Source: an uncultured Nitrospiraceae bacterium
GTDB taxonomy: Bacteria > Nitrospirota > Thermodesulfovibrionia > Thermodesulfovibrionales > Dissulfurispiraceae
Direction: 5' to 3'
Assembly (NCBI GenBank): GCA_963705105.1
Contig: CAVPIW010000006.1
Location: 512,001-576,000 of the forward strand
Length of the DNA stretch: 64,000 bases
Part shown: positions 5,752-24,098 of the stretch, piece after piece
Position numbering within the stretch: the first letter of the stretch is position 1
How the letters are laid out: each line of letters opens with the position of its first letter
Translations under genes and position numbers: made by a program
Notes under the pieces: generated by a model
What the model saw: the letters and a program-made list of their open reading frames with translations, nothing else
What the model was told of the DNA's origin: nothing
Database searches by the model: none

Positions 5752-5860
5752 CGTCCCCCCCTATTTTTCGGAGGAGAATCAATAGGTTGTAGCGGGTCTT
5801 TTGCAGACTTCGCCGCTCTCGGCGACTTACTGAAGAAACGTTTCAGAAACATTTCAGCGT
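5752..5860 (-). promoter_or_regulatory. Leader of array 1, including the tandem palindrome at 5835-5855
   Basis: Gapless similarity to the array 2 leader (CGTCCCCCC, TGCAGACTT, ACTTACTGAA, GAAACGTTTC-A-GAAACATTTC). Confidence 0.85.
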
Positions 5861-5940
5861 TATCAAAGAACAACACGACATCTGAACCGGCGCCGGCAAG
5901 AAATCCAGCGCAACAGACGTATGATTGAAAGTATATCACA

Positions 5941-6882
5941 TCATTCCTCAACCACCGAGTATCTCCCCAACCCGAAACTGGTGCCCTTTCCGACATGCAG
6001 CACCTCGCCGGCCTTCAAAAAGGGCAAGAATGGTCCCAGGTTCCCGGAGTACCGGATTTCTCCCACGAGGCCGCCCATTTTCATGCGCACGCCCTGGCGG
6101 GTCGAATATCTCTCCCAGTCATGCCACCGGAGAGCATTGTCGGCAGTCTCAACCTTCTCGGCTTCTCTGATTATACGTTTATGATCCCATGAGGGGGGCC
6201 TTCTGTCGCCGTGGAAATAGGACAACAGGCAGATCCTCCTCAGCAGGCTTCTCATGAGGATATGAAACCGGCAATCCACGACAAGGTCTCTCTGGTGCGC
6301 GATCCTCACCGGAGTGAGGAACCTGAGCGTCACCGAACGGTCTCCCGTCGCCGAAAAATCCTGCTCGTCGGGAAGAAAGAGTTCCTCGTGATCTGTCGCC
6401 ATGATGACCTGATCCAGCGAGGTATAAACAGTTTTGTCGTTCTGACGGACTTCGACAAGAGAGAATCGTCCCCTGCCCCTACCGATACCGCTCTTGCCGA
6501 GCTCATGAAAGGTATAGACGAAATAGGGGACATGGTCTTTCGCCCTCCCGATAAGGGTCAGCCCGAATGCGAGGGTATCACCGGGCCGGCAGACGCGGCC
6601 GGTCTCCATCGGCGGCTCTATGATAAAGGGGTGCGGGACCGCTTCGTATTTCCTCATGTTCATGATTGCCGCGTCCGCGCCGGGCGATGTCTCGAAGATA
6701 TAGGCGTAGATGCAGCTTGTCCGCAGGAGGCATTCCCTGCACTCTTTCTGCCTCAGGGCACAGACGACCCGCTTGAAGGCGACGCCGAAGCCGCCCCTGA
6801 GCGTCGAGCCCTTGTAATCCGGCAGAACGATCGTATCGACGGCTTCAATGACAAAGGTGAGTTTCCGGTATTCGATCTTCAT
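5941..6882 (-). CDS. cas6: CRISPR pre-crRNA processing endoribonuclease Cas6
   Basis: GSTLRGGFG, Cys cluster CALRQKECRECLLRTSC, C-terminal G-rich loop HVGKGTSFGLG; start at MKIEY overlaps the cas2 stop (ATGA). Confidence 0.93.
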   Translation of the reverse strand: MKIEYRKLTFVIEAVDTIVLPDYKGSTLRGGFGVAFKRVVCALRQKECRECLLRTSCIYAYIFETSPGADAAIMNMRKYEAVPHPFIIEPPMETGRVCRPGDTLAFGLTLIGRAKDHVPYFVYTFHELGKSGIGRGRGRFSLVEVRQNDKTVYTSLDQVIMATDHEELFLPDEQDFSATGDRSVTLRFLTPVRIAHQRDLVVDCRFHILMRSLLRRICLLSYFHGDRRPPSWDHKRIIREAEKVETADNALRWHDWERYSTRQGVRMKMGGLVGEIRYSGNLGPFLPFLKAGEVLHVGKGTSFGLGRYSVVEE

Positions 6883-7157
6883 GACAAAAACACGTTCACT
6901 CCTTCCGGTATTCTGTCGCCGCATCCGATGACGACGACCTTCAGCTCCGACGGCAGAGGGTAAATCCTCACGTCATCCTCCCTCTTTTCGATCAATCTGT
7001 GCAGGCGGTCCTTCAATTGTAGCAGTTCCTGCCATGTCAACCGGCAATAGAAGACGGAATACTGTATGTGCAGGCCCTGGCGTTTCAGACACCTGAAGAC
7101 CCGCGCGAGACGTCTCTCGTCGCTGATATCGTAACAGATCAGGTAATTCGCTTTCAT
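6879..7157 (-). CDS. cas2: Cas2 (copy 2)
   Basis: YLICYDISDERRL...QYSVF...DDVRIY. Confidence 0.95.
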   Translation of the reverse strand: MKANYLICYDISDERRLARVFRCLKRQGLHIQYSVFYCRLTWQELLQLKDRLHRLIEKREDDVRIYPLPSELKVVVIGCGDRIPEGVNVFLS

Positions 7158-7975
7158 AGACGCAGCTCCCGCGCAAGTTCGAAAAAGCCGTCCACGACCG
7201 TCTCGGTCCTCTCCCGCACAGCCTTGGCCCTGTTTTCAAAGCGATGGATAATGTCGCGCAGCCCCGTCTTTGTCACAATCCACCCCCCTCTTTCCCTGCT
7301 CATGCGCGCCTGCGTCCCGTCGGCCCGCAGGAACTGCTGGGTCTGCGTGTCGATCTCCGCGTCCAGGGCGTGGCAAAGGTCGAGGGCAAAGCCGAAGTGG
7401 TCTCTCCTGTGGACGATGCCCAGATGGGGATCGAGACCGGCCTTCAGGATGACGCCGATGACCAGCTCCCGGAAGAGGTTCGCGACAACATCCCTCGCCG
7501 CAGTCCATGTCTCATCGCCGGCGGGGGCGAACCTCCCAAGGATTTTCCTGTAGTCTTTCTCCCGGAATCCTTCCCTTTCCCAGGACTCCACGACATTTCC
7601 GGCAATCCTCTTCAGGCAATCAAGCTGTGTCATCTGTCTGTGCGCCGACAGGAATGTCCTATACCGCCCGACGGCGGCTTCCGAAGAGAGAAAGGCCCTC
7701 TGTTTGTCATGATGGCGGGGAAACCGGTCCGCACAGGGCAATGACACGGCGGACGCCTCGCCCCGTCTGTTCATGAACGTCACGGGGATGCCCCGTGCTG
7801 CAAACAGGGTGATGACTCCCGCGTCCATGCGCACATTGCCGATGACGACGACCCTGCCGATGAGGCGGGCGGGGACCCTTGTCCCTGCTTTGCCTTCCTG
7901 GGTCACCCACAGGGACGGCCCGTCCCTTGTGACCACCAAACCCCTGTTTTCGGTGAGATAGAGTGTTCTGTCCAT
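7154..7975 (-). CDS. cas1: Short, divergent Cas1 paralog
   Basis: Cas1-like N-terminal beta domain (RVVVIGNV...GIPVTFMNRRG) and GLDPHLGIVH...ALDL. It lacks a recognisable EGxxxxxYF segment and the NALLSLxY helix. Start set at MDRTLYL with an AGAGG RBS. Confidence 0.75.
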   Translation of the reverse strand: MDRTLYLTENRGLVVTRDGPSLWVTQEGKAGTRVPARLIGRVVVIGNVRMDAGVITLFAARGIPVTFMNRRGEASAVSLPCADRFPRHHDKQRAFLSSEAAVGRYRTFLSAHRQMTQLDCLKRIAGNVVESWEREGFREKDYRKILGRFAPAGDETWTAARDVVANLFRELVIGVILKAGLDPHLGIVHRRDHFGFALDLCHALDAEIDTQTQQFLRADGTQARMSRERGGWIVTKTGLRDIIHRFENRAKAVRERTETVVDGFFELARELRL

Positions 7976-7989
7976 GGCAACCTCTGTTG

Positions 7990-8050
7990 ATTCAATGTTC
8001 AACGTTCAATGTTCAAACTGGCTTTTGAACGTTGACTCTTGAAGTTGAAT
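7990..8050. repeat. Heptamer tandem repeat (TTCAAyG-like x4) followed by an imperfect inverted copy
   Basis: TTCAATG TTCAACG TTCAATG TTCAAAC ... TTTGAAC GTTGACT CTTGAAG TTGAAT. Confidence 0.7.
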
Positions 8051-8066
8051 TCTTTTCAAAGCCTGG

Positions 8067-9008
8067 TCATTGTCCCATGATCCGCCGGGCCAGGTCCCGT
8101 GCCGTTTCTGCAAAGCGGGGCCTCATCTCCTGTGCCCATTCCTCGTAGACGGGGTAAAATCTCTTCCTGCTCTCCTTTTTCAGGTAGCAGCCGGGCCTCT
8201 CGTTGTCTGAGGAGAAATCCCTGTCCGTGAATTGCCGCTCCCTGAAGACGGTCCAGACAAGCCGGTCCACACTGGGCCTGCAGTCCTCGACGAGATCGCA
8301 GGCGAGAGATTCCCTGCCGTAGTCGAACTGATGGTAAAAGCCGATCGTCGGGTCCAGGCCGATCACCTCGATCTCCCGCACCATCTCGAAGTGCAGGAGC
8401 GTATAACAGAGCGACAGGAGAGCGTTGACAGGGTCTCCCGGCGGCCTCCGGTTGCGACGCTTAAAATTCAGCGAGTCCGGAAAGAGCCGCACATAGACGG
8501 AAAAGTATGCCGACGACGCGCCCCCTTCGAGGCCCCTGACGCTGTCGATCGGGAGTGCCGGGTCAATGAGTTTGCCCATTGTTTTCTCCATGACGTCCAG
8601 GACCGGCCGCAGATAGACACCCAGCTCCGGTTTCGCATCGAGGGCTTCCCGCAGCAGATCCGACTGCGCCGAGAGCTTCGAGGTGACGATGCGGGCGGAA
8701 AAGTCACGGGGAAAGGGGCCGAGCGATTTTTCGTACTGCTTCAGCCTGAGGAGCCCGTTCTGATGGAGCCTGCCGTGCAGCATGCCGCAGAACCGTGTCC
8801 GTCTTCCCGAGAGGAATATCACCGATATGTCGGACTCCGCCAGCTTGCGCAGGACGGCCGCCTCGAGCGTGACATTGCCGACGACGATGACGCGCTTCAG
8901 CGGGTTGATCGGCACGATGCCCTCCTTGTTCCCGTTCAAGAAGAAGCCCAGGGCGTTGCCGTCGAGCTTGACGAGCATCTCCTTTCTGTCCAGATAGAGC
9001 GTTCCCAT
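8067..9008 (-). CDS. cas1: Cas1 integrase
   Basis: RGLEGGASSAYF, RRPPGDPVNALLSLCY, GLDPTIGFYH, SLACDLVE: catalytic E/H/D present; GGAGGT RBS before MGTLYL. Confidence 0.96.
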   Translation of the reverse strand: MGTLYLDRKEMLVKLDGNALGFFLNGNKEGIVPINPLKRVIVVGNVTLEAAVLRKLAESDISVIFLSGRRTRFCGMLHGRLHQNGLLRLKQYEKSLGPFPRDFSARIVTSKLSAQSDLLREALDAKPELGVYLRPVLDVMEKTMGKLIDPALPIDSVRGLEGGASSAYFSVYVRLFPDSLNFKRRNRRPPGDPVNALLSLCYTLLHFEMVREIEVIGLDPTIGFYHQFDYGRESLACDLVEDCRPSVDRLVWTVFRERQFTDRDFSSDNERPGCYLKKESRKRFYPVYEEWAQEMRPRFAETARDLARRIMGQ

Positions 9009-9055
9009 CTCCGTCACCTCCAGTCAGTGGCGTTCAAAATATTCCAAATCAAGGC

Positions 9056-9337
9056 CTATCCCACATAGAAATAGGCAGGGTCCTTCGGCTGGGCGGCGAT
9101 GCCGAGAACATGCGTCCTGCTCCTGCCGTCGAGGCTGAAGATGTGCACCCTGTCCTCATCGTGGACGATCAGCCTGCCGAGTTTGCTCGAAACGAACTTC
9201 AGCTCGCCGTCCGTCAGGAAGCACTCGTAGACGGACTTCTGCCCGCCCGTGCTGTACCCCTTGAGAAAGCGGCGCACGGCATTCAGCCTGTAAGGCTCCC
9301 TGATGTCATAGGCGATGAGATACAGCGATCGTTCCAT
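9056..9337 (-). CDS. cas2: Cas2 (copy 1)
   Basis: YLIAYDIREPYRL...GQKSVYEC...EDRV. Confidence 0.94.
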   Translation of the reverse strand: MERSLYLIAYDIREPYRLNAVRRFLKGYSTGGQKSVYECFLTDGELKFVSSKLGRLIVHDEDRVHIFSLDGRSRTHVLGIAAQPKDPAYFYVG

Positions 9338-9405
9338 GCAGACCCCCGGTCGATTCGACGTTCAGAGCGCAGGATTCAGCGCTGTGAACCGTCGTTCATA
9401 CCTTC

Positions 9406-9461
9406 AGTCTACCGGAGCAGGCGGGATAAGACACGAAAAGAAACGTTTCAGAAATGTTTCA
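9406..9461 (-). promoter_or_regulatory. Putative promoter of the adaptation operon: -10 TAGACT (9411-9406) plus tandem-palindrome operator (9440-9460)
   Basis: GAAACGTTTC-A-GAAATGTTTC; same motif-to--10 spacing as at 24043-24098. Confidence 0.65.
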
Positions 9462-9607
9462 AGGAAAGGGTGTAGCCGGGGGGAAGCTTTTCGGAATCGT
9501 GCCCTCCTTTTCCGGAGGGCCGATGCAACGATAGGGGCGAGTCACCAGAATCGATGGCGACCGGTAAAAGCAATTTGCAAGTCTGACCCCGGGGATGGGC
9601 CGTCTTT

Positions 9608-10855
9608 TTATTGCCCGATCTTGGGAAACGTGGGCGCGTCGGCGGATGAAAATATTTTTAGATCGAGGATGAAATCCCTGAGTTTTATGTAAGTCGTTTC
9701 CTTTGACGACTCAAAGCCGTGCGCCAGATAGGAGTGATTCCTCGACGATTGTATGTCCCGAAACCGACCTTCGCCGGCAGTGAAGATTTTCCCGGTCTCG
9801 TCGCCCAATTCGCCGAGCAGCCTGAAAGCCGCCGTCATGGGGAGTTTTATCTTGTTGTCATGAGCGCCCGTGTGGTTTTTCACGAACTCGTCGCGCAGGC
9901 TCTCGGGGATTTGATCCTTTCGCGCATTCGAGACGTCGATCGCGTATGAGTTCATGAGCTTCTCCTGCGCGACCATCTCCACCAGCCTGTACAGTCGCAA
10001 AACCGCGTCATCGACCTTTCCTTCTTCGAAACGTCGCTCGGCGTTCGAGAACATGTCCAATATGGAAAATACGGAGGGTTTTTTTGCCCTGGCGATAATT
10101 TCATTGAGAAAGGGCAATCTTTCCTGAGTGGCCCTGGCAAAGGCCTTCAAGGAACTGTCGTCGCTTTCCATGATCTCCTCGATCTTTGCACGGTCAAAAG
10201 CCTTTTGGGCATCCTTATGGCGGAAGAGATCCCAATTCTGATACCCGTCAATGAGAAAACTGATCTTCCTGAAGAGCGACTTGTATTTCGAGCTTTTTTC
10301 GAGCAACCCGTCGATCAGGTCGTTGGCGGCTTTGAACTGGTATTGATTGAAAAGAAGCGCAATTTTCTTCTTTTCCTCCACGGCGAGGAAGTCCCAGGGG
10401 TTTATGCTTTTGTAGACGATTTCGTGTCCGTCGACGACGACCCCGACACCGCTTTTGGTCCTCTCGCTGCCGCCGACATAAGAAAACGACACACCATGCG
10501 TAATCGCTGCCAGGGCCAGGGCGACAGACATGTTCTTCGTGCCGCCGGTGTAATCGACGATGACATTATCTCTTTCATACCCTCTTCTCATCACCCGCTG
10601 AACCGCCTCTTCCGCCTTCTCATGGCAGTGAAGCAAGTCGTTGACGTCGTCGGCGAGAGTGACCTCGCTTTTTATGGAAACGCCCTGGGCTTCCAGAGAT
10701 GACTTGATCTGTGCTATTAAGTCGCAGGTATCCTGTGATGCGAAAAATGAGACGAATTCGGGTCTATGTTCAAAGATCGACCGCTCGATCGGTTTCGTCG
10801 ATCCCCCGACAGTCACGACCATTGCTTTTGACACATTTTCCTCCGTTGTGACCAA
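9608..10855 (-). CDS. CARF-HEPN cOA-activated ribonuclease (TIGR02710-like, Csx1/Csm6 class)
   Basis: CARF motifs VTVGGS and VDYTGGTKNMS; HEPN motif RNHSYLAH. Confidence 0.85.
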   Translation of the reverse strand: MVTTEENVSKAMVVTVGGSTKPIERSIFEHRPEFVSFFASQDTCDLIAQIKSSLEAQGVSIKSEVTLADDVNDLLHCHEKAEEAVQRVMRRGYERDNVIVDYTGGTKNMSVALALAAITHGVSFSYVGGSERTKSGVGVVVDGHEIVYKSINPWDFLAVEEKKKIALLFNQYQFKAANDLIDGLLEKSSKYKSLFRKISFLIDGYQNWDLFRHKDAQKAFDRAKIEEIMESDDSSLKAFARATQERLPFLNEIIARAKKPSVFSILDMFSNAERRFEEGKVDDAVLRLYRLVEMVAQEKLMNSYAIDVSNARKDQIPESLRDEFVKNHTGAHDNKIKLPMTAAFRLLGELGDETGKIFTAGEGRFRDIQSSRNHSYLAHGFESSKETTYIKLRDFILDLKIFSSADAPTFPKIGQ

Positions 10856-10936
10856 TTTTATCCCTTATGCAAAACGAAAAGCTTCCCTTGCACGGCAAGA
10901 CATAACCGGGGCCAGTCCTGCTATTGTCGTGGGCGG

Positions 10937-11598
10937 GTCTCAATCCCTTCTACGTGAGGTCTTTTTTCCTACCCTCGCCTACGACAATCAGGAATTCATG
11001 ACGTGGGGTCTCAATCCCTTCTATTTGAGGTCTTTTTTCCTACCAATACCTGTCAGGAGAAGTTTATGAAGGGCGGTCTCAATCCCTTCTATTTGAGGTC
11101 TTTTTTCCTACTTAGTCAGTACTGAGCAAAAGCCCGTCAGGAAAGTCTCAATCCCTTCTATTTGAGGTCTTTTTTCCTACAGCTCCGACAGGCCGCCCGT
11201 GCTCCCGAGGCCCGTCTCAATCCCTTCTATTTGAGGTCTTTTTTCCTACTAAATCCCGAAACGGAATGAGGAGGTTTTAACGAGTCTCAATCCCTTCTAT
11301 TTGAGGTCTTTTTTCCTACTGGACGTCCTCTCAAGCTCAGTCCATGAGTACGTCTCAATCCCTTCTATTTGAGGTCTTTTTTCCTACAGAATCGCCGCCA
11401 GAATAGTTGCAGACCTCTGCGCGTCTCAATCCCTTCTATTTGAGGTCTTTTTTCCTACAGCAAAGTACGACGACAGGATTCGGTTAGGTATCGTCTCAAT
11501 CCCTTCTATTTGAGGTCTTTTTTCCTACAGGCTTACGAGATGGTGTCAGACTGGCGTGCGTCGTCTCAATCCCTTCTATTTGAGGTCTTTTTTCCTAC
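10937..11598 (-). CRISPR. CRISPR array 2: 10 repeats and 9 spacers of 32-35 bp. Repeat on the transcribed strand: GTAGGAAAAAAGACCTCAAATAGAAGGGATTGAGAC
   Basis: Counted directly. The leftmost repeat (10937-10972) is degenerate, as expected for the trailer end, which supports minus orientation. Confidence 0.98.
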
Positions 11599-11703
11599 CG
11601 TCCCCCCATAAAATATGGCTGCATTTCAAAGGGTTCCAGAGGCCCTTTTGCAGACTTTTTCGCCTTGAGGCACTTACTGAAACAATATTTCTGAAATGTT
11701 TCA
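11599..11703 (-). promoter_or_regulatory. Leader of array 2, including the tandem palindrome at 11682-11702
   Basis: Same motifs at the same offsets from the first repeat as in the array 1 leader. Confidence 0.85.
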
Positions 11704-11791
11704 TATCGTGCATCAATAACCAGCGTTGTCAAAGAGCGGAGCGGGTGATCAACTGTTCCTGATCGACTCAAGATACCTCTGAATATTCACG

Positions 11792-12040
11792 TCAATCCGG
11801 CGAATGGTCGAAGATCACCACATCGCCGGTCACCGGCGAGCGGTAGACCAGCTTTCGCGCCTTGCCGTGCAGGGCGTGGGCAATCTTCAGATAGAGCCAC
11901 ACCGGCCCCGCGCCGGTGAGAACGACGTCATTCCCCTCGTCGGCGAGTTCCCGCGCCCGGAGGACGTAGGTGTCGAGATCCCGAAGCTTGGCGGAGGTCG
12001 AGTAAAGGGATTTGACGTCGATCATCACTTCATCAGCCAT
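11792..12040 (-). CDS. csx3: Csx3/Crn3-family ring nuclease
   Basis: 82 aa; VVLTGAGPVWLYLKIAHALH and C-terminal VIFDH motifs. Confidence 0.8.
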   Translation of the reverse strand: MADEVMIDVKSLYSTSAKLRDLDTYVLRARELADEGNDVVLTGAGPVWLYLKIAHALHGKARKLVYRSPVTGDVVIFDHSPD

Positions 12041-12043
12041 TCT

Positions 12044-13213
12044 TCAGGACCTCTCGCTGGGCTCGCTCAACATCTTCGATACTATCGCGCCGAATGCCGC
12101 CACCTTCGACGGCGGTATGACCTCCGTGTTGAATTGCTCGGCCCGGGCTCGCACGGATTCCTTCATCTGACCGTCTTTCAATATATACGGAGATGTTGTG
12201 ACGAGGATACTTCTGACGCGCAGACCAAATTCTTTCTGGAGAGCACCTATTTTGTAAAGCACTTCCGTTTTCCTGTCATCATGCTGATCAAGAGATTTGC
12301 ACTCAATGAAATAAAGCGCGTTTTCCTTTGTAAACATAACATCGAATTCGTTGTCCCGACCCTTGGCGTTCATCAGTTGCACACCCAGGACGACATCGTC
12401 CACGCTTTGACCGAGAACGGCCGTTATTTCGTTGAAACAGTATTCCTCCAACCAGCCGCCGGTCAAATATCTGATCTCAGAACGATTGAACGTTTTTGAA
12501 ACCACACCATTGCTGTTATCGTAAGACGCTCCCACTCTCGCGATGAATTCATTCTCCTCGCGGGATGCGCCCAGAAAAGGAGCATTCACGAAGTATTGCT
12601 TATCGTCCCTATGAGACCTAAGGACGCCGCTCATCCATACAAGGAGATTTTTTATCTTCTCATACTTCAGCACTATCCAATCTGTGAACTCCCTTCGCTG
12701 AATAGCGTCATCTTTGTAACCTTTTAACTTTTTCTCGTTCATGACGTTCAGACCATAGCTCGTCAGATAATCCACGACACTCAGCCTGAGAGCAAGACTT
12801 GTCGGTTTACTGGGGCTCTTCTTCGGAAAGGGTACAATGAATTCATTCTTTGGTAAGGGTATATAAATCATCCTGCTGCTGTAGTCCTTGAAATATTCAT
12901 ATGCTGCAATCGACATGATCTTGGTCCCACAGGTTAGATTCACTGTAAATTCAGCATCTTCCCAACCTTCGATCCATGCGTCGATTTTGCGGTGACAGTC
13001 AAGTATGGAGTCCTCTTGCACCGTTATCTTGTCATGTCTTTTTTCATAATGGAGACCCAGCCGGTGCAGTGTTTCTATGATGCTCTGAGATTTCCCCCTA
13101 CCCTCCATATCATTTGTTGTGACAAAAAGCAGCCTGTCAGGCTTGAAATGGTGAACACCAAGGATGTTCGGTATTGTCTGATCCGAAACCAGACAGACAT
13201 GGATTTGGGTCAT
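12044..13213 (-). CDS. Card1/Can2-like CARF + PD-(D/E)xK nuclease (DUF1887)
   Basis: HVCLVSDQTIPN and NLTCGTKIMS CARF motifs; GGWLEEY and NEFDV...FIECKS nuclease motifs. Confidence 0.88.
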   Translation of the reverse strand: MTQIHVCLVSDQTIPNILGVHHFKPDRLLFVTTNDMEGRGKSQSIIETLHRLGLHYEKRHDKITVQEDSILDCHRKIDAWIEGWEDAEFTVNLTCGTKIMSIAAYEYFKDYSSRMIYIPLPKNEFIVPFPKKSPSKPTSLALRLSVVDYLTSYGLNVMNEKKLKGYKDDAIQRREFTDWIVLKYEKIKNLLVWMSGVLRSHRDDKQYFVNAPFLGASREENEFIARVGASYDNSNGVVSKTFNRSEIRYLTGGWLEEYCFNEITAVLGQSVDDVVLGVQLMNAKGRDNEFDVMFTKENALYFIECKSLDQHDDRKTEVLYKIGALQKEFGLRVRSILVTTSPYILKDGQMKESVRARAEQFNTEVIPPSKVAAFGAIVSKMLSEPSERS

Positions 13214-13229
13214 ATTTTCATCTCCCTTG

Positions 13230-16221: not shown

Positions 16222-17195
16222 CGCTGCTCCTCCTGTTGAGGCAGCCTTATTGCCACTACCGGCGCATAACCTTGATGGACAGTTTCCCGGATAGACGCAG
16301 AAAGACTTCCATTCGAGCCGAGACCTTGCCCGATTACATGTCTATTTTCGAATTTAGCGGGGGTTAAGACTGCACCGGTGTCAGCAAGCAGTATGGGCGT
16401 TTTGAAGGGGTTGTCAGTAAGCACGCCGACATCACCATGTCGACCAAAGCGCGTGAATGGCTGGTAAAAACACCGAGATTCATCCCAATCCAGCCCCTGT
16501 GGTGCACAGGGTGATAGTGTTATCCATGCGTTCGAGTCGTCCTGGTCAGGAAGTCTGAACTCATCCAGCGCAATCAGCTCAAACTTACCCAGTCCGATGC
16601 TGGCATCCCTACCATATCCTATTTGGCCGATAGTGGTGAGCAAATATCTCAAATCATCCTGCATCAGGCGTTCTTCATCAAGGATGACATATAAATCGAG
16701 AAGCATCGAACCCTGCTCTTGTCTCTGAGCATTTTTGGCTCCGTACCACAGCTGCAGCATAGAATAAGGTGCGAACTCTCCCACGCCGGTTCTACCAGTT
16801 TCACGATTCAATGTGTTGTGGGGTTGAGGATGTTCCTCTGGCACTGCACCATTTAAAGCGCTGGATGGTTCAGAATACCTAAGCCATTCTGCCACAGGTT
16901 CCTCGAAGTGCGCCAAAGGCATCCAGACCCGTTTCTTGATAGACTTCAGATCATCGTGCTCATTTCCCACGAACCAATGAGTAGGCAGACTGGGCCTTGG
17001 TAGGTAATCAGCCGGAAACGCGTCCGAGATTACGGCATAGGGACGACCGGCAATGTAACCATCAAGGAGTAAGGTAAGCCGATCTATACCATATATGTTC
17101 CGAGCCGCCCAGCATAATTGACCAAACAGCGTATCGCCCTTGAGCGGCGTGCCAAAGGCGGATTTGGGGCTAATTCGTGCACGATATGAACGCAT
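16218..17195 (-). CDS. csm4: Type III-A RAMP Csm4
   Basis: GDTLFGQLCW, ISDAFP, GYGRDASIGLGKF. Confidence 0.92.
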   Translation of the reverse strand: MRSYRARISPKSAFGTPLKGDTLFGQLCWAARNIYGIDRLTLLLDGYIAGRPYAVISDAFPADYLPRPSLPTHWFVGNEHDDLKSIKKRVWMPLAHFEEPVAEWLRYSEPSSALNGAVPEEHPQPHNTLNRETGRTGVGEFAPYSMLQLWYGAKNAQRQEQGSMLLDLYVILDEERLMQDDLRYLLTTIGQIGYGRDASIGLGKFELIALDEFRLPDQDDSNAWITLSPCAPQGLDWDESRCFYQPFTRFGRHGDVGVLTDNPFKTPILLADTGAVLTPAKFENRHVIGQGLGSNGSLSASIRETVHQGYAPVVAIRLPQQEEQR

Positions 17196-17205
17196 AGTTA
17201 TGGCC

Positions 17206-17931
17206 TCACGTTTTCTGTTCGGATGAAATACTCACGGCCTCAATTTTCGGCAAAACATCTATGCCGTCCAAGGAAAGTCCTGTGAACCTGATCTTGCCAT
17301 AACCACGGGATCCAGACCCACCCAATCCGGTAAGTTCCAATAGCTTCAGGCCACGCCAGACTGTTGGCAACAGATCTTCGTCGTCATGTTGCCGAATGGT
17401 GAGATTGAACTCGAACCGAGCGCCAGCCGGCACTCGTTCCGTGTTTCGAGGATGCTCGGCAACACCCCGGATGCGGTCAATCATGTTTTCCATCTTTGTT
17501 TCGGTGAGCAGAAGGTTGCGGCGATTCATCTCATCAACCCAACGTCTATCCAACGGACAATCCCAGAAGGCCAGCCGAGTCGGGCCAATTTCTTTCACCA
17601 GTGCATCACTGGCACCATCACCCTCCGGGGCTCCACCAAAGAGCCTCAAGATGTCTCTTGCCTCTTTGACATTTGTCGAAATATCTTTAATATGCTTGAA
17701 CCCCAGGGGCACGCCACCAGTTATACCAACCAGCCCAAGCTCCCACTCCAGGAGGCTTCTCATCTTTCCTTTGATGCTGGAACCCGGAATATACGGTTCC
17801 AAGGTAACTGGATGTTTGATCACTGGATTATCTGTCCCCCCAATATGCATTTCATTATTGCCGCTGCCGATGTGCAATCCAGTCACTATCTCGATAGTGC
17901 CGGTAATTTTTTTGATGGCAGAGAGTTTCAT
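17206..17931 (-). CDS. csm3: Type III-A RAMP Csm3 (target RNase)
   Basis: TGLHIG, IGGTDNPV (catalytic Asp), PYIPGSSIKGKMRS, LGGSGSRGYG. Confidence 0.96.
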   Translation of the reverse strand: MKLSAIKKITGTIEIVTGLHIGSGNNEMHIGGTDNPVIKHPVTLEPYIPGSSIKGKMRSLLEWELGLVGITGGVPLGFKHIKDISTNVKEARDILRLFGGAPEGDGASDALVKEIGPTRLAFWDCPLDRRWVDEMNRRNLLLTETKMENMIDRIRGVAEHPRNTERVPAGARFEFNLTIRQHDDEDLLPTVWRGLKLLELTGLGGSGSRGYGKIRFTGLSLDGIDVLPKIEAVSISSEQKT

Positions 17932-18235
17932 ATCTTGGCCTCCTTTAATCTTGGCGTTCCTGCTTGTAGAAACCTATGAACGCTTCCCAAAAAAGCTTGC
18001 ATGTCGTTAGAGTCTCAGGACTGATTACCTCTTGCAGGGTGTGCGAGAAAAGAGACACGAACGTCTTATCAACAAGTTTGCGACCTTCTGCATAGGCTAT
18101 CTTCGCATTCAGCATGCGGATAAATGGCAGAAACTCGTTAAATTTTTCTGGCTGTTGGTTGACCCTTGTTTCCCAGAGCATGAGCTCGTCATAGAAGCGT
18201 CTAAGTTGAGTTGTCTTGTTACGATTGTGATCTGC

Positions 18236-19606
18236 GAGGTCATGTCAATAGGTGTGTAAAAAGCCATCAGGCGGCGAACCTTTCGACAGACTCTTCCTGC
18301 TCGACGGCAATGCCGTCTGTGAAGAGTTTCCCCTCGTGGACATCCCTCAGTAACCAATATCCCTTGAGCCTGCGGAATCTCTTCTCAGCGACTCCCAGCA
18401 ACTTCCAGATCATCGCCGTCGCGTTTTGGACTTTCCTATACCGCTTCGCCGCATCCGTTCTCAAACGCACCGCGCTGAACGGTGACTCCACCACATTGGT
18501 CGTCCTGATATGCACCCAGTGCTCTTTCGGCAATGAATAGAACGTCACCATTCGCTCCCAATCTCTCCTCAGGGTCTCCGTCGCCTTCGGAAAATCCCTC
18601 CCATACCGGCTGATAAAGCTGTCCCTGAGCCTCTCACACTCTGCCTGCGTCTCTGCATAGGGGATCTTGGTGAGATACTCGCCTGCCTCGGCACGTATCC
18701 TCTTGGGCATCGCATCCAGCACGTTGGTTATCTTATGGTTCCAACACCTCTGCTCCTTGCCCTCGGGATGAAGCTCTCCCAACGCTGACCATATCCCCAA
18801 ATGACCATCGGCAACCGTCAATGTGCCCAGCTTCAGTCCCCGAGCGGTCAGATCCCTCAGGACCCCTGCCCAGGATTCCTTGCTCTCCCGATACCCGCTC
18901 TCGCAGGCCAGCAGGATCTTTTCCCCCGTAACCAACGCCCCGATGATCACCAGCAATGCTGCTTTGTCTTTCTCCAACCCGGCCTTCACGTATATCCCGT
19001 CCGCCCACTGATAGACGACCTCAAGCCCGGAAAGATCCCGAGCCTTCCACTCGTCGTATTCGCACTGCCATTTGCCCTTCAGCCGCTGGATCGACGAGGA
19101 CGACAGCGGCGCCCCTTCTCCCAATAACCCCCGAAGCGCTAAATCAAAATCCCCCTGCGCCAGTCCGTGGAGATACAATTCCGGCAGTAACTGCCCCACT
19201 TCTTTTGACCGACGTATGAATAACGGCAGGACCTTGCTCTCAAATCGCTCCTCCGCTCCCCGCACACGGGGCCGTCGGACCGTGATCGTCCCGTTCATCA
19301 GCGTGAACTTCTTCCCCTTCCCGTGTCCGTTCCAATACCCCCGCTTGCTATCCACCTTCTTGATCCTCTCGGATTTCTTCCTCCCTAAAAAGATCTCGAC
19401 TTCCTCTTCCAGTATGTCTTGAATGTATTCCTGGACTCTCTGCCGAACTATCCCTTCCAATGCCTCGTACGTCGCCCTTGACGGCTCAACTGCCTCGGTG
19501 ATACTCTTGTCCATGGTGGTGTCTCCTTTCTCTTTGTTGATTCCAGGTCAACTGATTAAGGATACACCGCCTTCTCACTCATTTACACACTTTTTGATCT
19601 TACCTC
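18236..19606 (-). mobile_element. IS256-family insertion sequence (1371 bp)
   Basis: 25-bp imperfect IRs (GAGGTCATGTCAATAGGTGTGTAAA / GAGGTAAGATCAAAAAGTGTGTAAA); 9-bp target duplication GTGATCTGC at 18227-18235 and 19607-19615. Confidence 0.95.
18267..19514 (-). CDS. IS256-family DDE transposase, intact
   Basis: WADGIY, VADGHLG, QRCWNHK, RTTNVVES. Confidence 0.95.
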   Translation of the reverse strand: MDKSITEAVEPSRATYEALEGIVRQRVQEYIQDILEEEVEIFLGRKKSERIKKVDSKRGYWNGHGKGKKFTLMNGTITVRRPRVRGAEERFESKVLPLFIRRSKEVGQLLPELYLHGLAQGDFDLALRGLLGEGAPLSSSSIQRLKGKWQCEYDEWKARDLSGLEVVYQWADGIYVKAGLEKDKAALLVIIGALVTGEKILLACESGYRESKESWAGVLRDLTARGLKLGTLTVADGHLGIWSALGELHPEGKEQRCWNHKITNVLDAMPKRIRAEAGEYLTKIPYAETQAECERLRDSFISRYGRDFPKATETLRRDWERMVTFYSLPKEHWVHIRTTNVVESPFSAVRLRTDAAKRYRKVQNATAMIWKLLGVAEKRFRRLKGYWLLRDVHEGKLFTDGIAVEQEESVERFAA

Positions 19607-19795
19607 GTGATCTGCTCGCGAAACATCCTGGGCAGCTATAAGAGCTGCGCTGTTAAACAGTTCCGGATCGAGCGGCCTACGGAAAGAAATATTCCGCAGA
19701 TTTATCGAAGGCTGTGAACTACCTGCGCCTTGATCTTGTCGATGCCCCTGTTGCGGACGATTTTGACGGTTCTCGTACTGCATTGCGATCCTCCT

Positions 19796-22567
19796 TTAGT
19801 CTCGTTCCTGATAGAGATATGTGAATAGTGTAATCTTGTAAGCGTTTTGGTGCTTCTCGATGCCTTCGATTTTTATCTCACGCGCCAGATTCTCCAGCAG
19901 TTGTTGTCGTTGCCTTTCACGTTCAGCGCGGTCGCTCACATCCCTATACCGAGTTTCCGCAAACCGTCTCGTCCTGTAACGAAAATAAGAGTGCCATATA
20001 GCATTTTCTGGCCGTTCATTTACCTTGCCTGCCATTTCTGTCAAATGAAGCAGGCCGTAAAGATAACCTTTTGAAAGCGCATACTCGTCAGTTACCTTTC
20101 GCAGGTCCTTTTCACGTTCCATGAGCAGGTCGAACTGAGCCCAGGTAACCGGCTGGTCAAAGGACGCAACGGCATTCTTAGGAGCTGGCTGGACTTTATT
20201 TGGATTATGTGTTTTGGCTTTTTCCAATGCCTCTTCTGCCAATATTGCCATGTGCCGAATGGGAAATCCCGGTTTCGTCATGGAAAAACCTACAGAAAAA
20301 TGGATATCTTGGTTTTCAGCAACGTATCGCACAAACTCGTTTTTCAACCGCTGTGCAAGTTTGATCATAGAAAGCCATGGTCCGATCAGAAAAAAATCAT
20401 CACCACCGGCAAATACGGTATAGGTGTTCGGAAATTCATTCTTACATAGCCATGGAAGATAGACAGTGAAAAAGGAATTCATCTGCCTCGATAGGGCAGC
20501 CATCTTGGCAAAAGTCGGATTATGCAGGCCCGTTTGAAATATCTTACCCAGATTGTCCACGTCGCCTTTAAAAGTCATCAACGCCTCAACTCCAATCCAT
20601 TCATCTGTCTCATCATTAAGATGCTGATCATCCCTTGCGAGGTGATTCAAGGTTTTTGGTGTTCCAATGCGTTCGTTTTCCCGATCATCTTTACTCATGC
20701 CTTCGTATCGTCTCAAAAAGGCATTATTCAACTCTGCGCTCTTAAATCGTGGAACAAACCCATTGATGTTGCGACGTGCATATCCATCCCAGAGGGGAGC
20801 ATCTGCGTCTTCTGGCAAACTGAAATCCCACGCTCGCAATAGGTTGCCAGAACTTGCCTCATTCCCGAACTTGCCGGATCGTTCTTCTTCCCGTGTAAAG
20901 AGAAGATGGTAGCCGAAAATGGGCAACTCAGTCTTATGAAGACTCTGTCCTTCTGCACGCGGGGTTATCGGTTCACCTGTTACGAGCAAACGATCTTCCG
21001 TGACAAGCCATTTTCCAACTTGAATTTGATCGAATGCGAGTGTACTCACCCATACATCTTTCTCGATTTCTCTTGTAGCTGGAGAACGTCCGTCAATCTG
21101 ACATTCACGGTGTACGAATCGATCCAGAAAACCGTGAAATACCGATATGGCAGGCTTCCTGCCACATAACTCGAATCGTTGCATCTTTGCTGTCTCTAAT
21201 TGCTCGAACAATTTTTTCATTAAATTGCGGAAAGGAGACTGTCCTCCGTCTGCTTGCCGAAAATCGCGCGCGGCTGCCGGTAACCAAGCAAGCCCCACCC
21301 CGGATTGTCCCCATGTGTTGGATAGAAACCATTCCTCCAACTCTGCTTGAACGCCATGAAGTCGATCGATTGTCTCTTTGGTGTTGTGAGCGACGATGAG
21401 AAATTTGCCCGCGGCATTAACGACTTGTGACGTTGACGGCAGATTGAGCACGTCGAGCACTTTGAGGGCAGCAAGTTCTGTCAGTAAAGAAACGTAAAAC
21501 GAACGACCACGAAGCAGTTTTGCGGCACTTTTTTGTGTCTGCCCACCTTGGGCAAATATGAAATTCTGTATGCCGAAGAAATCGCCCTGTACGAGTAGGT
21601 ATTTTTCTTCATTCCAGGCATCCATTGCCTCTGGCGTGTGCTCACGTTCTTTATCCCATTGCACGCGCAGTTGTTCACGCACAATTTCTGATGCGTGGCC
21701 TAAATCATGATGATACCGCCACAACCCAACGGCAAGTGCTGCGGTAGCCTTGGAATGGTCAAAAAGTGATACATCTGGACGTACCTTGCCTGAGATGCCG
21801 GTAGTGGCAGAGGGGATCGCATGGGTAAAGACAAGCCAGAGACTCTCGAAATGGTCAAGCCATAGGGGAAGATTACTTCGATGGCTTACGGGTATTTTAG
21901 CGAGTGCCTGTTTGAATATATTCCATAGATTGAGGTATTCATGCTGAGCAGCTACATTGTCAGGCTTTGCAGTCTTGTCAATTGCCGCGGGGTATATGGC
22001 GCGTGGTGAAAATGGTTTGAGAGGGTATCGCCACACACTTGTTTCCGGGCGTTCAGTAAGACGAATGCGCTCAAAAAGAGTTTCCTGACGGACCGTGTAA
22101 TGTGTAAGTTCGGGGTCTTTTGTTTCGTCTATAGCAGCATTATAGACATCAAAGGTCTCACGTTCGAATCCGGAAGCCAGCCGATCAGCTGTGGCAATGA
22201 TCCATTGTAGACAGGTGTCGGGTCTATGATGTTTGGATGCTGCGTTTATGATCGAATCATCAGCACCCTTATCTTTCCATGGAGCAAAAGGATTCATTTC
22301 TTCACCGACGATGTCAGGCAGATGCTCTTCAAGTATATCCATACCAATTGCCGTATATGCGCTATGGACGTGTGTACGTCGCCCTCCGTATTCCGGGCAA
22401 TAAAGTCCCTCATTTATCGACTGTCGCATATTGCCTTCGGCATCCTTGATCCGAGCCTCAGGAATGCGAGATCGTTCAGCAAATTTGCCTAAATCATGCA
22501 GCAAAGCCGCCAGTGCCATGCGGCTCGATGCATCAAGGATTTTTTTATCGCTCACCGTGTCCTCCAT
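19796..22567 (-). CDS. cas10: Cas10/Csm1 large subunit
   Basis: HD nuclease motif LLHDLGK, Palm GDFFGIQNFI, and intact cyclase motif FAGGDD. Confidence 0.97.
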   Translation of the reverse strand: MEDTVSDKKILDASSRMALAALLHDLGKFAERSRIPEARIKDAEGNMRQSINEGLYCPEYGGRRTHVHSAYTAIGMDILEEHLPDIVGEEMNPFAPWKDKGADDSIINAASKHHRPDTCLQWIIATADRLASGFERETFDVYNAAIDETKDPELTHYTVRQETLFERIRLTERPETSVWRYPLKPFSPRAIYPAAIDKTAKPDNVAAQHEYLNLWNIFKQALAKIPVSHRSNLPLWLDHFESLWLVFTHAIPSATTGISGKVRPDVSLFDHSKATAALAVGLWRYHHDLGHASEIVREQLRVQWDKEREHTPEAMDAWNEEKYLLVQGDFFGIQNFIFAQGGQTQKSAAKLLRGRSFYVSLLTELAALKVLDVLNLPSTSQVVNAAGKFLIVAHNTKETIDRLHGVQAELEEWFLSNTWGQSGVGLAWLPAAARDFRQADGGQSPFRNLMKKLFEQLETAKMQRFELCGRKPAISVFHGFLDRFVHRECQIDGRSPATREIEKDVWVSTLAFDQIQVGKWLVTEDRLLVTGEPITPRAEGQSLHKTELPIFGYHLLFTREEERSGKFGNEASSGNLLRAWDFSLPEDADAPLWDGYARRNINGFVPRFKSAELNNAFLRRYEGMSKDDRENERIGTPKTLNHLARDDQHLNDETDEWIGVEALMTFKGDVDNLGKIFQTGLHNPTFAKMAALSRQMNSFFTVYLPWLCKNEFPNTYTVFAGGDDFFLIGPWLSMIKLAQRLKNEFVRYVAENQDIHFSVGFSMTKPGFPIRHMAILAEEALEKAKTHNPNKVQPAPKNAVASFDQPVTWAQFDLLMEREKDLRKVTDEYALSKGYLYGLLHLTEMAGKVNERPENAIWHSYFRYRTRRFAETRYRDVSDRAERERQRQQLLENLAREIKIEGIEKHQNAYKITLFTYLYQERD

Positions 22568-22708
22568 TGTCCCTTCTGCTCGGCATCGCCGAGAAAGGCT
22601 GGTGTTACAAACTGAACTTTGTAGGTCAATTTTTTCATCGTACGCTCCACGTTCTAATGCTTTTTACAGCCACAAAAATTACTGTGCCACCATTGACAGT
22701 TCTTGTCC

Positions 22709-22831
22709 TCATCTCATCAAATAGATGTCCGCCGTTGCCCGCGGGATTCCATAGAGATTGACGGCAATTCCCCCCGTGACGAGGTACCGAACGGAGTGAT
22801 CATTCAATATGCGGAAGAACTCCCTAGGCCC
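22709..22831 (-). pseudogene. N-terminal remnant of a nucleotidyltransferase
   Basis: Manual translation gives EFFRILNDHSVRYLVTGGIAVNLYGIPRATADIYLMR*; GG-x-A...R-x-T-x-D-I-D motif with the last D lost; no start codon. Confidence 0.6.
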
Positions 22832-22881
22832 TCACTGTCAGCTATGTCGGGTGTTTCTGCTCATCGAGCAGATGTGATCAC

Positions 22882-24036
22882 CTATTCTATCCATATCTTC
22901 CCCTTATCCACCCTCACCCCGTATTTGCTCACTGCGTACCTGCGGTCGCTCGTCACGACATAGTACGGTAAAAGCGTCTGATCGCTCAAATGGTCTTTGA
23001 AGGCCCCTTTGATTTTCGTGATGATCTGCCGCAGCAGCTCCTGCCTGAGGCCTTCGGGGTGCTTGCCGAGCAGCTCCTCGACGACGAACTTCTTCTGCCT
23101 GTAGATGACCGCATAGTCTTTCGCCATTTCTTCCAGGGCGGGCCGTGTCGTCAGCTCGGCCAGCGACAGGTAACAGCCCTTGCAGTCATGACAGTAAGGC
23201 CGGTCCGGGTATTTGCAGTGTTCCGTTTTCTGCCTGAGGAACATCGTGTAGAGCATGAGCTGCATGGGCACCATCTCGACGAGGGTTTCGCCGACATAGG
23301 TCGTGCCGTCCGGCAGGCTGACCTTCACTTCCGGCTGGATCATGGCGATGTCGATCTCGCGCTGCCCCTCGTTCACGAGTTCATGAAAACTCTTCGCGTG
23401 GAGGGAGAGCTTACCGCCGAGGCGTACAAAAGGCAGTTCGGCGAGGACTACCTCCGCGTCGTTCGTGTTCAGGCTCCGGGCGGTTCCGTCAGGCATCCTG
23501 CACTCGATGACTGTGTTCTCTCTCGGTTTATAGAAGAAGTTGGGATTGGACTCGAACTCGGGGGTGACGAGCACGTGATAAAGCCTGTCCCAGGGCCTGC
23601 CGAAAAGCTGAAGGGCGGCGCCGAGGTAGAAGCTCATCGTCTTGCGCCCCCCGGCCAGAGAGCAGTGGAGCCTGAGACCCTGGTCGGCGGTCTTCTCCCT
23701 GATCAGGGCCGTAACGAGGTCGCCGAGGGCTTCGTTGTCCGCCGCCGTCTTGATGTCGGCCAGTTCCCTGCCGGACCTGTCTTTGACAAGCAGTATTCCT
23801 GAAGGATCGATGTGCAGGCCGGGAATGCCGTAATCCGCAGCGAGCCGGGCGAGAACACCATCATGGATGAGCGCATCTTCGAGTCTATCTTTTCCTGTTG
23901 TCGTGGTGACGACATTGATCTCGTCAGGGTGAACAGGGGGCTTCCGCTGCGACAGGGCGTAAATGGTCTCCGTCACGATCTGAGGCGTCGACCCGACCAC
24001 GAAGACAAGGCATTCTCTGTATCCTGTCCCGTTCAT
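22882..24036 (-). CDS. NE0113-family CARF protein with a putative C-terminal winged-helix domain and Cys4 insert
   Basis: GSTPQIVTET and SLAGGRKTMS CARF motifs; HCKYPDRPYCHDCKGC; helix ELLRQIITKIKGAF followed by a beta-hairpin (wHTH inferred). Confidence 0.82.
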   Translation of the reverse strand: MNGTGYRECLVFVVGSTPQIVTETIYALSQRKPPVHPDEINVVTTTTGKDRLEDALIHDGVLARLAADYGIPGLHIDPSGILLVKDRSGRELADIKTAADNEALGDLVTALIREKTADQGLRLHCSLAGGRKTMSFYLGAALQLFGRPWDRLYHVLVTPEFESNPNFFYKPRENTVIECRMPDGTARSLNTNDAEVVLAELPFVRLGGKLSLHAKSFHELVNEGQREIDIAMIQPEVKVSLPDGTTYVGETLVEMVPMQLMLYTMFLRQKTEHCKYPDRPYCHDCKGCYLSLAELTTRPALEEMAKDYAVIYRQKKFVVEELLGKHPEGLRQELLRQIITKIKGAFKDHLSDQTLLPYYVVTSDRRYAVSKYGVRVDKGKIWIE

Positions 24037-24042
24037 GCATTA

Positions 24043-24098
24043 ATTGTATGGAAATCGCAGCCAGCGTGCAAGGGATGAAATATTTCTGAAATGTTTCA
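24043..24098 (-). promoter_or_regulatory. Sigma70 promoter (TTGCAC-N17-TACAAT) with an upstream tandem-palindrome operator; probably a leaderless transcript
   Basis: -35 at 24071-24066, -10 at 24048-24043, 6 nt before the ATG; TGAAATATTTC-T-GAAATGTTTCA at 24076-24098. Confidence 0.75.

Follow-up and report, generated by a model that had tools for sequence, protein, structure and literature searches.

The transcriptional arm of cyclic oligoadenylate (cOA) signalling has so far been studied mainly via archaeal Csa3, a factor with a CARF domain and a winged helix-turn-helix (wHTH) that is described as binding cyclic tetra-adenylate (cA4), with two palindromes as its expected DNA site (PMC8844856). 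CARF families that lack effector domains, "such as Csa3 and NE0113", were predicted by Makarova et al. (2014) to be direct transcription regulators (PMC4012209, a text that also mentions RtcR). Members of the NE0113 family, or Csx14, were later handled in other ways: one text lists Csx14 as a predicted ring nuclease (PMC8284326), a survey merged it into Crn1 under a length limit of 250 aa (PMC12409355), and predicted transcription factors were deferred to future work in a survey of type III effectors (PMC11229360). Here we analyze a type III-A CRISPR locus in a 64,000-nt stretch of DNA, hereafter the window, from an uncultured Nitrospiraceae bacterium (assembly GCA_963705105.1, contig CAVPIW010000006.1, positions 512,001 to 576,000), where a 21-bp motif precedes the csx14 gene and a cas2-cas1 operon and also occurs in both CRISPR leaders.

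We consider it very likely that this motif is the operator of the Csx14 protein encoded in the locus, and estimate at about 0.6 the probability that Csx14 is a cOA-responsive activator of the resulting regulon; DNA binding by Csx14, its response to cOA and activation over repression are what we infer. A regulatory role of NE0113 proteins was already predicted in 2014. The 384-aa form of Csx14 lies outside the survey that merged Csx14 into Crn1, because of the 250-aa limit, and a literature search, with subscription journals mostly outside its reach, found no published operator, regulon or DNA-binding fold for the Csx14/NE0113 family.

The 21-bp motif and its promoters

The motif is built from two 10-bp GAAAYRTTTC units with an 11-bp spacing (GAAAYRTTTC-N-GAAAYRTTTC). 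Its sites in the window, and the features that they accompany, are as follows.

4381-5751, minus strand: CRISPR array 1, 20 repeats of 36 nt, leader at the high-coordinate end
5835-5855, no strand assigned: candidate operator site 1, leader 1, 83 nt between motif and first repeat
9406-9434, minus strand: putative cas2 promoter, -35 GTGTCT (9434-9429), 17-nt spacer, -10 TAGACT (9411-9406)
9440-9460, no strand assigned: candidate operator site 2, 5 nt upstream of the cas2 -35
10937-11598, minus strand: CRISPR array 2, 10 repeats
11682-11702, no strand assigned: candidate operator site 3, leader 2, promoter-proximal half-site of the ATTGT variant
22882-24036, minus strand: csx14 (NE0113 family), CARF at residues 10-209, linker helix, predicted winged helix with four-cysteine (Cys4) insert at 215-384
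24037-24076, minus strand: putative csx14 promoter, 5 nt, -35 TTGCAC (24071-24066), 17 nt, -10 TACAAT (24048-24043), 6 nt, ATG
24077-24097, no strand assigned: candidate operator site 4, at about -61 to -41 of the putative csx14 promoter

Scanning both strands of the window with GAAAYRTTTCWGAAAYRTTTC and up to 3 mismatches gave exactly 4 matches, three of them perfect (5835-5855, 9440-9460 and 24077-24097) and one, at 11682-11702, with 2 mismatches that both fall within one half. This bears out the claim, made in an earlier reading of the same DNA (the original prediction), that the motif lies at 5835, 9440, 11682 and 24077 and nowhere else in the window. That reading had also called one half of site 3 degenerate; the 2 mismatches are there, but its promoter-proximal half-site has the ATTGT form, a variant seen repeatedly at this position in relatives. 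None of 100 dinucleotide-preserving shuffles of the window contained any match to GAAAYRTTTCWGAAAYRTTTC. Across the whole genome (4,226,846 bases in 19 contigs), a search with no more than 2 mismatches found the four sites of the window and one more, a reversed-pattern control gave 0 matches in the same 4.23 Mb, and the relaxed pattern GMAAYRTTKYNGMAAYRTTKY with up to 1 mismatch returned the same five sites and nothing further. The motif is thus not common genome-wide, with four of its five sites in the CRISPR locus.

Within the motif, GAAA and TTTC are the conserved quartets, and the YR pair at the centre of each unit is freely variable and need not stay complementary between the two units. 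TTTTC usually follows the 21-mer directly, AAAA precedes several sites, and one genome (G208) has three units in succession. The motif can be read both as two direct 11-bp repeats and as an overall palindrome; direct repeats of 11 bp are of the kind used by OmpR/PhoB-type domains, and a palindrome would suit a two-fold symmetric CARF dimer.

The arrays, searched for in positions 4000-26000 of the window, are read on the minus strand, because this is the strand on which ATTGCGAC ends the repeat and because a degenerate repeat lies at the low-coordinate end; the motifs at 5835 and 11682 are therefore on the leader side. The array repeats end at 5751 and 11598, and at both arrays the motif starts exactly 84 bp from the repeat, as the original prediction had it. 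Its second spacing was equally exact: the 5' ends of the -10 boxes TAGACT (9411) and TACAAT (24048), both on the minus strand, are each 29 bp from the motif edge. It had further described the -35 of the cas2 promoter as poor and the motif as lying just upstream of the -35; GTGTCT (9434-9429) was located 17 nt upstream of TAGACT, the core elements of this promoter are indeed poor, and the gap between motif and -35 is 5 nt at both the csx14 and the cas2 promoters.

The same arrangement was found in 40 distinct csx14 upstream regions, in which the motif is followed by 5 nt (consensus TTTTC), a -35, a spacer of ~17 nt, a -10, ~6 nt and the ATG, which comes 39-41 nt after the motif in 36 of the 40. 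The -10 matches TATAAT at 4 or more of its 6 positions in 38/40 promoters. The -35 has TT in at least 34 and G at the third position in 21, and it matches TTGACA at no more than 3/6 positions in 22/40 and at 4/6 or more in 18/40. The csx14 promoter of the window is in the same register (ATCCC, TTGCAC, 17 nt, TACAAT, TAATGC, ATG), and the geometry of its cas2 promoter matches that of the csx14 promoters. Because the ATG lies ~6 nt after the -10 and 39-41 nt after the motif, the csx14 mRNA is very probably leaderless, with the operator spanning about -61 to -41, which we take to be where promoter-proximal OmpR-type sites lie. Likewise, the cas2 start codon of relatives (loci L053, L055, L059, L064 and L073) is 6-7 nt after the -10 of the operator-linked promoter, and their cas2, like csx14, appears to be translated from a leaderless mRNA. 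The window's cas2 has a leader of ~60 nt with a 7-codon open reading frame (ORF) at the ancestral start position.

A second conserved leader element, GYTCTTTGAYAAC, contains TTGACA on the array-sense strand; it lies at 5859-5871 and 11724-11736 in the window and also occurs in leaders or leader-like sequence of several genomes (L046, L047, L050, L060 and L063). The possibility that it supplies the -35 for transcription through the motif was rejected, with no consistent -10 found; a fixed promoter role is disfavoured because its distance upstream of the operator varies (3-22 nt).

The fifth copy of the motif in the genome (G000:C6:652593-652613; L005 9594-9614, plus strand) is outside the window, 116 kb away. 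It lies within a block of ~66 nt that duplicates the csx14 promoter with 2 mismatches (motif, TTGCAC, 17 nt, TACAAT). This block is ~190 nt upstream of a TANGO2-family gene (L005 9834-10595; Pfam PF05742, E 3.2e-73), and the site looks like the capture of a promoter by this non-CRISPR gene.

Association of the motif with csx14

In a sample of 401 genomes of the phylum (homologues at E ≤ 1e-10, motif with no more than 1 mismatch), a Csx14 homologue was present in 67, the motif in 31 and both in 26, while the reversed-pattern control hit 3/401 genomes. Five genomes contain the motif only. Two of these, G268 and G035, each contain three sites, every one close to a contig end: in G268, csx14 begins 40 nt after the motif and is broken off after 23 codons where the contig stops, and a contig end of G035 carries the last 51 residues of a Csx14 homologue. 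Since csx14 is cut off by the contig end, both exceptions are assembly artefacts; the remaining three genomes contain a single site each, matching the rate of the reversed control. Motif and NE0113-wHTH genes therefore co-occur, with a homologue in 26/31 motif genomes and a truncated csx14 in two more. In the family of the window's own genome, the motif is found in 11/11 genomes with csx14 and in G268, and the other 22 genomes have neither.

The motif is tied to csx14 and not to type III loci generally. We defined Cas10-positive genomes with a palm-domain search, applying by hand a threshold of E ≤ 1e-15 (weaker scores include unrelated cyclases); among the 62 retained, the motif is present in 22/46 genomes with Csx14 and in 0/16 without it. 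Additionally, none of the 17 genomes in which the sole homologue matches just the CARF half has the motif.

As for position, the motif abuts csx14 in 22 of the 29 best loci of the phylum. It is upstream of the gene in 17/29, in 14 of these at 39-41 nt from the ATG, and at or just after the stop codon in 11/29, where it probably serves the next operon. A second set comprised 80 loci, one genome per species, labelled as Nitrospirota, Syntrophorhabdus, Syntrophus, Geobacter, Aminicenantes/Saccharicenans, Nitrospinota, Deferribacteres and others. The motif was found within 2.5 kb in 68/80 of these and abutting csx14 in 61/80, whereas five mononucleotide shuffles of their 418 kb gave 0 matches. The motif thus follows csx14 across phyla at the fixed distance from the ATG given above. 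The homologue records include cultured carriers: Dissulfurispira thermophila, Thermodesulfovibrio hydrogeniphilus and Syntrophorhabdus aromaticivorans.

We also examined 31 motif sites away from csx14 plus three singletons. Ten sites, in ten genomes, lie ~40 nt upstream of cas2, which is followed by cas1, and three further sites are within ~420 nt of Cas1. Five precede cas10 or RAMP-led csm/cmr operons, as do sites at two cmr operons of G035, and one is ahead of a Card1-type CARF gene. In one relative the motif is 82 nt from the first array repeat, compared to 83 nt in the window, and three sites are in leader-like sequence at contig starts. The four-unit regulon proposed for the window is therefore the common pattern of the family, with the motif at cas2-cas1, cas10/cmr and leaders in relatives. 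A few sites are ahead of unrelated genes: a PEGA-domain gene, sulfur-transport genes and a TraT-like lipoprotein gene, the last of which heads the csx14 operon in one genus.

In one genome, a site (L057; G157:C17:46158-46178) lies ~140 nt upstream of a Cas3-like helicase gene, which hints at cross-control of a type I system by a regulator linked to type III.

The Csx14 protein and the surrounding locus

The csx14 product belongs to the NE0113 family, matching Pfam PF09623 (Cas_NE0113) with 155.9 bits (cut-off 23) and NCBIfam TIGR02584 with 218.9 bits (cut-off 80.65), both over residues 10-209 only; with TIGR03642, 'cas_csx14', it scores 35.5 bits, below the cut-off of 90.35. Homologue records are named 'Csx14' or 'ring nuclease Csm6' in the source databases, and the NCBI family name is 'ring nuclease Csm6', so that the original prediction was right in giving ring nuclease or Csm6 as the usual label. 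Residues 215-384 matched 0 Pfam families, Trans_reg_C included, at E ≤ 10, and a sequence search of Csx14 against solved structures gave 0 matches at E ≤ 1. Its Pfam and NCBIfam matches included no Csa3 model, the presence of such a model in these libraries being unchecked.

A full-length AlphaFold2 model, built from 37 sequences, had a predicted local distance difference test (pLDDT) score of 87.5. Foldseek matched its N-terminal half to structures of Cad1-CARF and Crn1 at E 1e-5 to 1e-3, the Crn1 matches being the small enzymes Sso2081 and Sis0455. Rossmann-like fold matches, motifs I and II and a predicted dimer place the protein in the CARF superfamily, and residues G15 and T17 (GxT) and G129, G130, R131 and K132 (GGRKT) are invariant or nearly so among homologues.

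The C-terminal half modelled alone reached pLDDT 88.5 and a predicted template modelling (pTM) score of 0.84. In VIA-align, its best 18 rows were all DNA-binding domains of the OmpR/PhoB/ToxR/CadC type, led by BaeR (Z 9.8, root-mean-square deviation 2.6 over 98 residues), VanR (9.0), GlnR (8.7), DrrD (8.7) and CadC (8.5), with ToxR (7.1) and KdpE (7.0) in lower rows. Given that Z 7-8 is the typical best score even for models without a clear match, it is the scores of BaeR and VanR, which exceed this level, and the single family of all 18 rows that support a winged helix. Foldseek found nothing for this model at E ≤ 0.001, its best match, at E 0.08, being to the same OmpR/PhoB-type family. An OmpR/PhoB-type winged helix in the C-terminal domain is thus supported by the predicted model, in agreement with the wHTH that had been proposed there.

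The domain comprises an N-terminal beta-sheet, a helix, an insert of ~60 residues, a strongly conserved helix with the consensus IRQNISKIN, and a wing hairpin. Four invariant cysteines, C274, C282, C285 and C288 (codons 23173-23217), lie in the insert, with the pattern CX7CX2CX2C, or CX5CX2CX2C in one clade; they could form a zinc site or hold an iron-sulfur cluster, possibly as a second input. Comparing by eye the recognition helix (IRQNISKIN) with the TTTC or TTGT/TTGC variants of the motif revealed no clean one-to-one pattern.

Csx14 is predicted to form a homodimer, with an interface score from predicted aligned errors (ipSAE) of 0.73, a mark reached by 20/30 solved homodimers and by 1/23 proteins solved as single chains, against 0.08 for the best control; pLDDT was at least 84 and the runs share at least 69% of their contacts. 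The interface comprises the CARF motif-II region (residues 127-144) and the linker helix. This result may reflect memory of, or likeness to, CARF dimers already solved.

All CRISPR-cas genes of the locus are on the minus strand, and each of its four transcription units is headed by one candidate operator. The other features are as follows.

5941-6924, minus strand: cas6 (Pfam PF10040, E 2.6e-20)
6879-7157, minus strand: second cas2 (NCBIfam TIGR01573, E 7.3e-13)
7154-8002, minus strand: cas1' (divergent), Cas1 profile matched by the N-terminal third only
8067-9017, minus strand: cas1 (Pfam PF01867, E 9.1e-71)
9056-9337, minus strand: cas2 (Pfam PF09827, E 9.8e-15)
9608-10855, minus strand: csm6, CARF-6H-HEPN effector (Pfam PF09670, PF22205; NCBIfam TIGR02710)
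11792-12040, minus strand: small ORF (82 aa) between card1 and leader 2, sub-threshold match to Crn3/Csx3 ring nuclease (TIGR02579, 30.6 bits, cut-off 55.4)
12044-13213, minus strand: card1/can2, CARF plus nuclease effector (Pfam PF23400, PF09002)
13230-13978, minus strand: pair of HEPN (13230-13625) and nucleotidyltransferase (13622-13978) genes
14476-16221, minus strand: csm5 (RAMP Pfam matches and gene order)
16218-17195, minus strand: csm4 (named by position only)
17206-17931, minus strand: csm3 (RAMP Pfam matches and gene order)
17945-18181, minus strand: csm2 C-terminal piece, 78 aa (Csm2 Pfam match, PF03750)
18267-19514, minus strand: Mutator-family transposase of an insertion sequence (IS) element that splits csm2 (Pfam PF00872, E 5.7e-49)
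19583-19783, minus strand: csm2 N-terminal piece, 66 aa (by position and reading; no Pfam match)
19796-22567, minus strand: cas10/csm1, HD motif at residue 24, GGDD at residue 721
22568-22881, minus strand: csx14-cas10 spacer, 314 bp, with gene remnants and no operator

The locus is of type III-A (Csm), with matches to Cas10 palm2, Csm1_B, Csm2 (PF03750) and RAMP families and the GGDD motif at residue 721 of Cas10. In minus-strand reading order, a radical-SAM gene precedes the operator of site 4, and an unassigned 111-aa ORF lies between csm5 and the nucleotidyltransferase/HEPN pair. A HEPN/minimal-nucleotidyltransferase pair is in the same place in the type III-B locus of G035 (L039 3695-4470). 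The order cas2-cas1-cas1'-cas2 (window 6879-9337) is also found in G268 (L036 596-3143), and so represents a conserved arrangement and not decay.

The original prediction had the CARF gene, with its operator, heading the cas10-csm operon. The operator before csx14 is there, but cas10-csm has no operator of its own in the window, and with none left in the csx14-cas10 spacer (22568-22881), cas10-csm would depend on read-through from the csx14 promoter. The spacer contains frame fragments that look like a nucleotidyltransferase gene and like the beginning of a cmr1-like RAMP (MKKLTYKVQFVTPAFLGDAEQ...), remnants that match the order csx14-nucleotidyltransferase-motif-cmr1 of G035; this suggests that a III-B operon, together with its operator, was replaced by the csm operon.

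Proposed circuit, alternatives and relation to known systems

In the circuit that we propose, the CARF domain of a Csx14 dimer would bind cOA made by Cas10, most likely cA4, and the two OmpR/PhoB-type winged helices would each occupy one unit of the operator, from where, 5 nt upstream of the -35, the bound protein would aid RNA polymerase. A response to cOA is suggested because Csx14 has a CARF domain and Cas10 a GGDD motif, and cA4 is the likely signal because it is the one used by Card1/Can2 effectors, as given in PMC8284326. The targets would be csx14 with read-through into csm, cas2-cas1-cas1'-cas2-cas6 and both CRISPR leaders, closing a positive loop in which target RNA leads through Cas10, cOA and Csx14 to more sensor, effector and adaptation proteins and more CRISPR RNA. 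Csx14, given its conserved GxT and GGRKT, might also cleave cOA slowly, and this cleavage would limit the loop. More tentatively, we can imagine a portable feed-forward switch, in which the cOA-turned activator raises all units at once and so couples interference to spacer uptake, ring-nuclease activity times the pulse and the Cys4 insert acts as a metal or redox input, the cassette and its operator having moved between at least five phyla and the TANGO2-family gene having been captured in this genome.

Several observations weigh against a cOA-responsive activator. In S. solfataricus, cA4 left specific DNA binding by Csa3 in vitro unchanged, according to PMC8844856, and a cOA response of Csx14 is therefore not to be assumed; its conserved GxT and lysine motifs would also fit a protein that mainly degrades cOA. 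Both leaders of the window have, at the expected place of the -10, TGCAAA, lacking the usual A2 and T6; this hexamer is conserved between the two leaders and appears as TGCACA in a distant relative (G320), and it is not a standard -10. A sigma-70 consensus scan of positions 5700-24300, which found 14 promoter-like sites with 13.2 expected, called none of the four proposed promoters. A search for RNA sequencing runs containing the locus returned a single sediment metagenome run, with 0.05 of the sequence words matched. The genomes behind the co-occurrence counts are related, so the counts are not independent, and several loci of the 80-locus set come from genomes that also supplied the 29 phylum loci. 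Homologous loci without the motif within 2.5 kb number 12/80, including one each from Nitrosomonas, Geobacter, Syntrophorhabdaceae and Syntrophaceae and several from Nitrospirota. Finally, the second operator that relatives have at the csx14 stop codon, for the effector operon, is lost in the window, where csm2 is split by the IS element; because of this split, the type III-A effector and signalling arm may be non-functional, and the circuit may be partly disabled in this organism, with its operators still intact, so that the loop might not run here.

The most serious alternative keeps operator and binder and reverses the sign: ligand-free Csx14 would repress, including its own gene, and cOA would release it, with derepression on infection. 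Autoregulatory operators beside a regulator's own gene are often repressive, and basal activity is plausible for promoters of which 18/40 have a usable -35 and 38/40 a good -10. Csa3b, moreover, reportedly represses cas genes (PMC8844856). However, at no promoter does the site overlap the start, the -10 or the -35; in the window and in 36/40 csx14 promoters it ends 5 nt upstream of the -35, which is the position of an activator. Core elements are poor in the window's cas2 and leader promoters, and the closest structural matches of the C-terminal domain include activators solved in transcription-activation complexes (GlnR, AfsR and TcpP). Because the motif abuts the -35, the -35 is often weak and the fold is common to activators in such complexes, we give activation roughly twice the odds of repression, which we regard as rather unlikely.

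That Csx14 is only a ring nuclease, with a winged helix of no sequence-specific role, and that another factor of host or locus binds the motif, would parallel what is assumed for the large Crn1 enzymes; it would agree with the NCBI family name 'ring nuclease Csm6', with the conservation of GxT and GGRKT, and with reviews that list Csx14 as a predicted ring nuclease (PMC8284326, PMC12409355). We nevertheless find this improbable, as the motif accompanies csx14, always 40 nt away, in records labelled as at least five different phyla; a host factor could not account for a motif that stays with one gene in hosts so different. As to a locus factor, no other DNA-binding gene is common to these loci, whose neighbours vary (III-A, III-B, adaptation genes), and the motif is absent both from the Cas10-positive genomes without csx14 and from those whose sole homologue matches the CARF half only. 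Least probable, and very unlikely, is a structural signal, be it a hairpin acting as a weak terminator in both directions or a leader site that anchors Cas1-Cas2 or a protein like IHF. The 21-mer is indeed self-complementary, with TTTTC after it and AAAA before several sites, and 2/4 sites of the window are in leaders. Yet the central YR pair varies without staying complementary between the units, most sites are not in leaders but at gene promoters in a fixed -35/-10 register, and an integrase site would have no place in front of csx14, cas10 or cmr1. A terminator or hairpin was tried and rejected, the four sites folding at -2.5 to -7.0 kcal/mol, no better than shuffles (z +0.26 to -1.38); since these hairpins are weak and no better than chance, we prefer protein-DNA recognition over an RNA or terminator function.

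If Csx14 proteins regulate their loci, many bacterial type III systems would have an unrecognised transcriptional arm of cOA signalling, in a family that is now annotated 'ring nuclease Csm6' or 'Csx14' and whose long forms were set aside in ring-nuclease surveys. The 21-bp operator, the fixed promoter layout and the list of targets make type III feedback on cas, adaptation and CRISPR RNA expression testable in bacteria, and the operator is a practical marker for new genes recruited into the regulon.

Other systems also convert such a signal into transcription. In CalpL-CalpT-CalpS, a cA4-activated protease releases an ECF sigma factor, and RtcR is a CARF-sigma54 activator. Like the proposed role of Csx14, both join an input of cyclic-nucleotide or CARF type to a transcriptional output; in contrast to anti-sigma proteolysis or to an AAA+ activator of sigma-54, Csx14 would be a one-component binder beside sigma-70-type promoters. 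In OmpR and PhoB boxes, as in the Csx14 motif, units recur every 11 bp beside the -35, and residues 235-384 of Csx14 are predicted to match the fold of the DNA-binding domain of these response regulators. However, Csx14 has neither a receiver domain nor phosphorylation, its input being the CARF domain; the likeness is structural only, with no Trans_reg_C sequence match at E 10, and each DNA unit of Csx14 is itself palindromic, while its domain carries the Cys4 insert.

The 'large' Crn1 ring nucleases (Sso1393, Sis0811; CARF7 plus HTH), like Csx14, have a CARF domain with S/T and K motifs of catalytic type followed by an HTH (PMC9638899). A conserved operator accompanies csx14, whereas no DNA target is described for the Crn1 HTH in that source (PMC9638899).

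We file Csx14 with the CARF-wHTH regulators of CRISPR loci, exemplified by Csa3, as a distinct variant. Csa3 (Csa3a and Csa3b; type I-A/III archaea and Thermus) likewise has a CARF domain joined to a winged helix at its C-terminus and is dimeric, as predicted for Csx14, and it is described as a cA4-binding protein with a two-palindrome site that targets cas adaptation genes and CRISPR leaders (PMC8844856, PMC8284326). Csx14, in contrast, is of another sequence family (NE0113/TIGR02584), and is predicted to carry an OmpR/PhoB-type winged helix whose features include an N-terminal beta-sheet and an insert of ~60 residues with four invariant cysteines. It keeps ring-nuclease-type motifs, whereas S. 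solfataricus Csa3 is described as lacking such activity (PMC8844856), and it resides in bacterial III-A and III-B loci, with its own operator sequence and a fixed layout of probably leaderless promoters.

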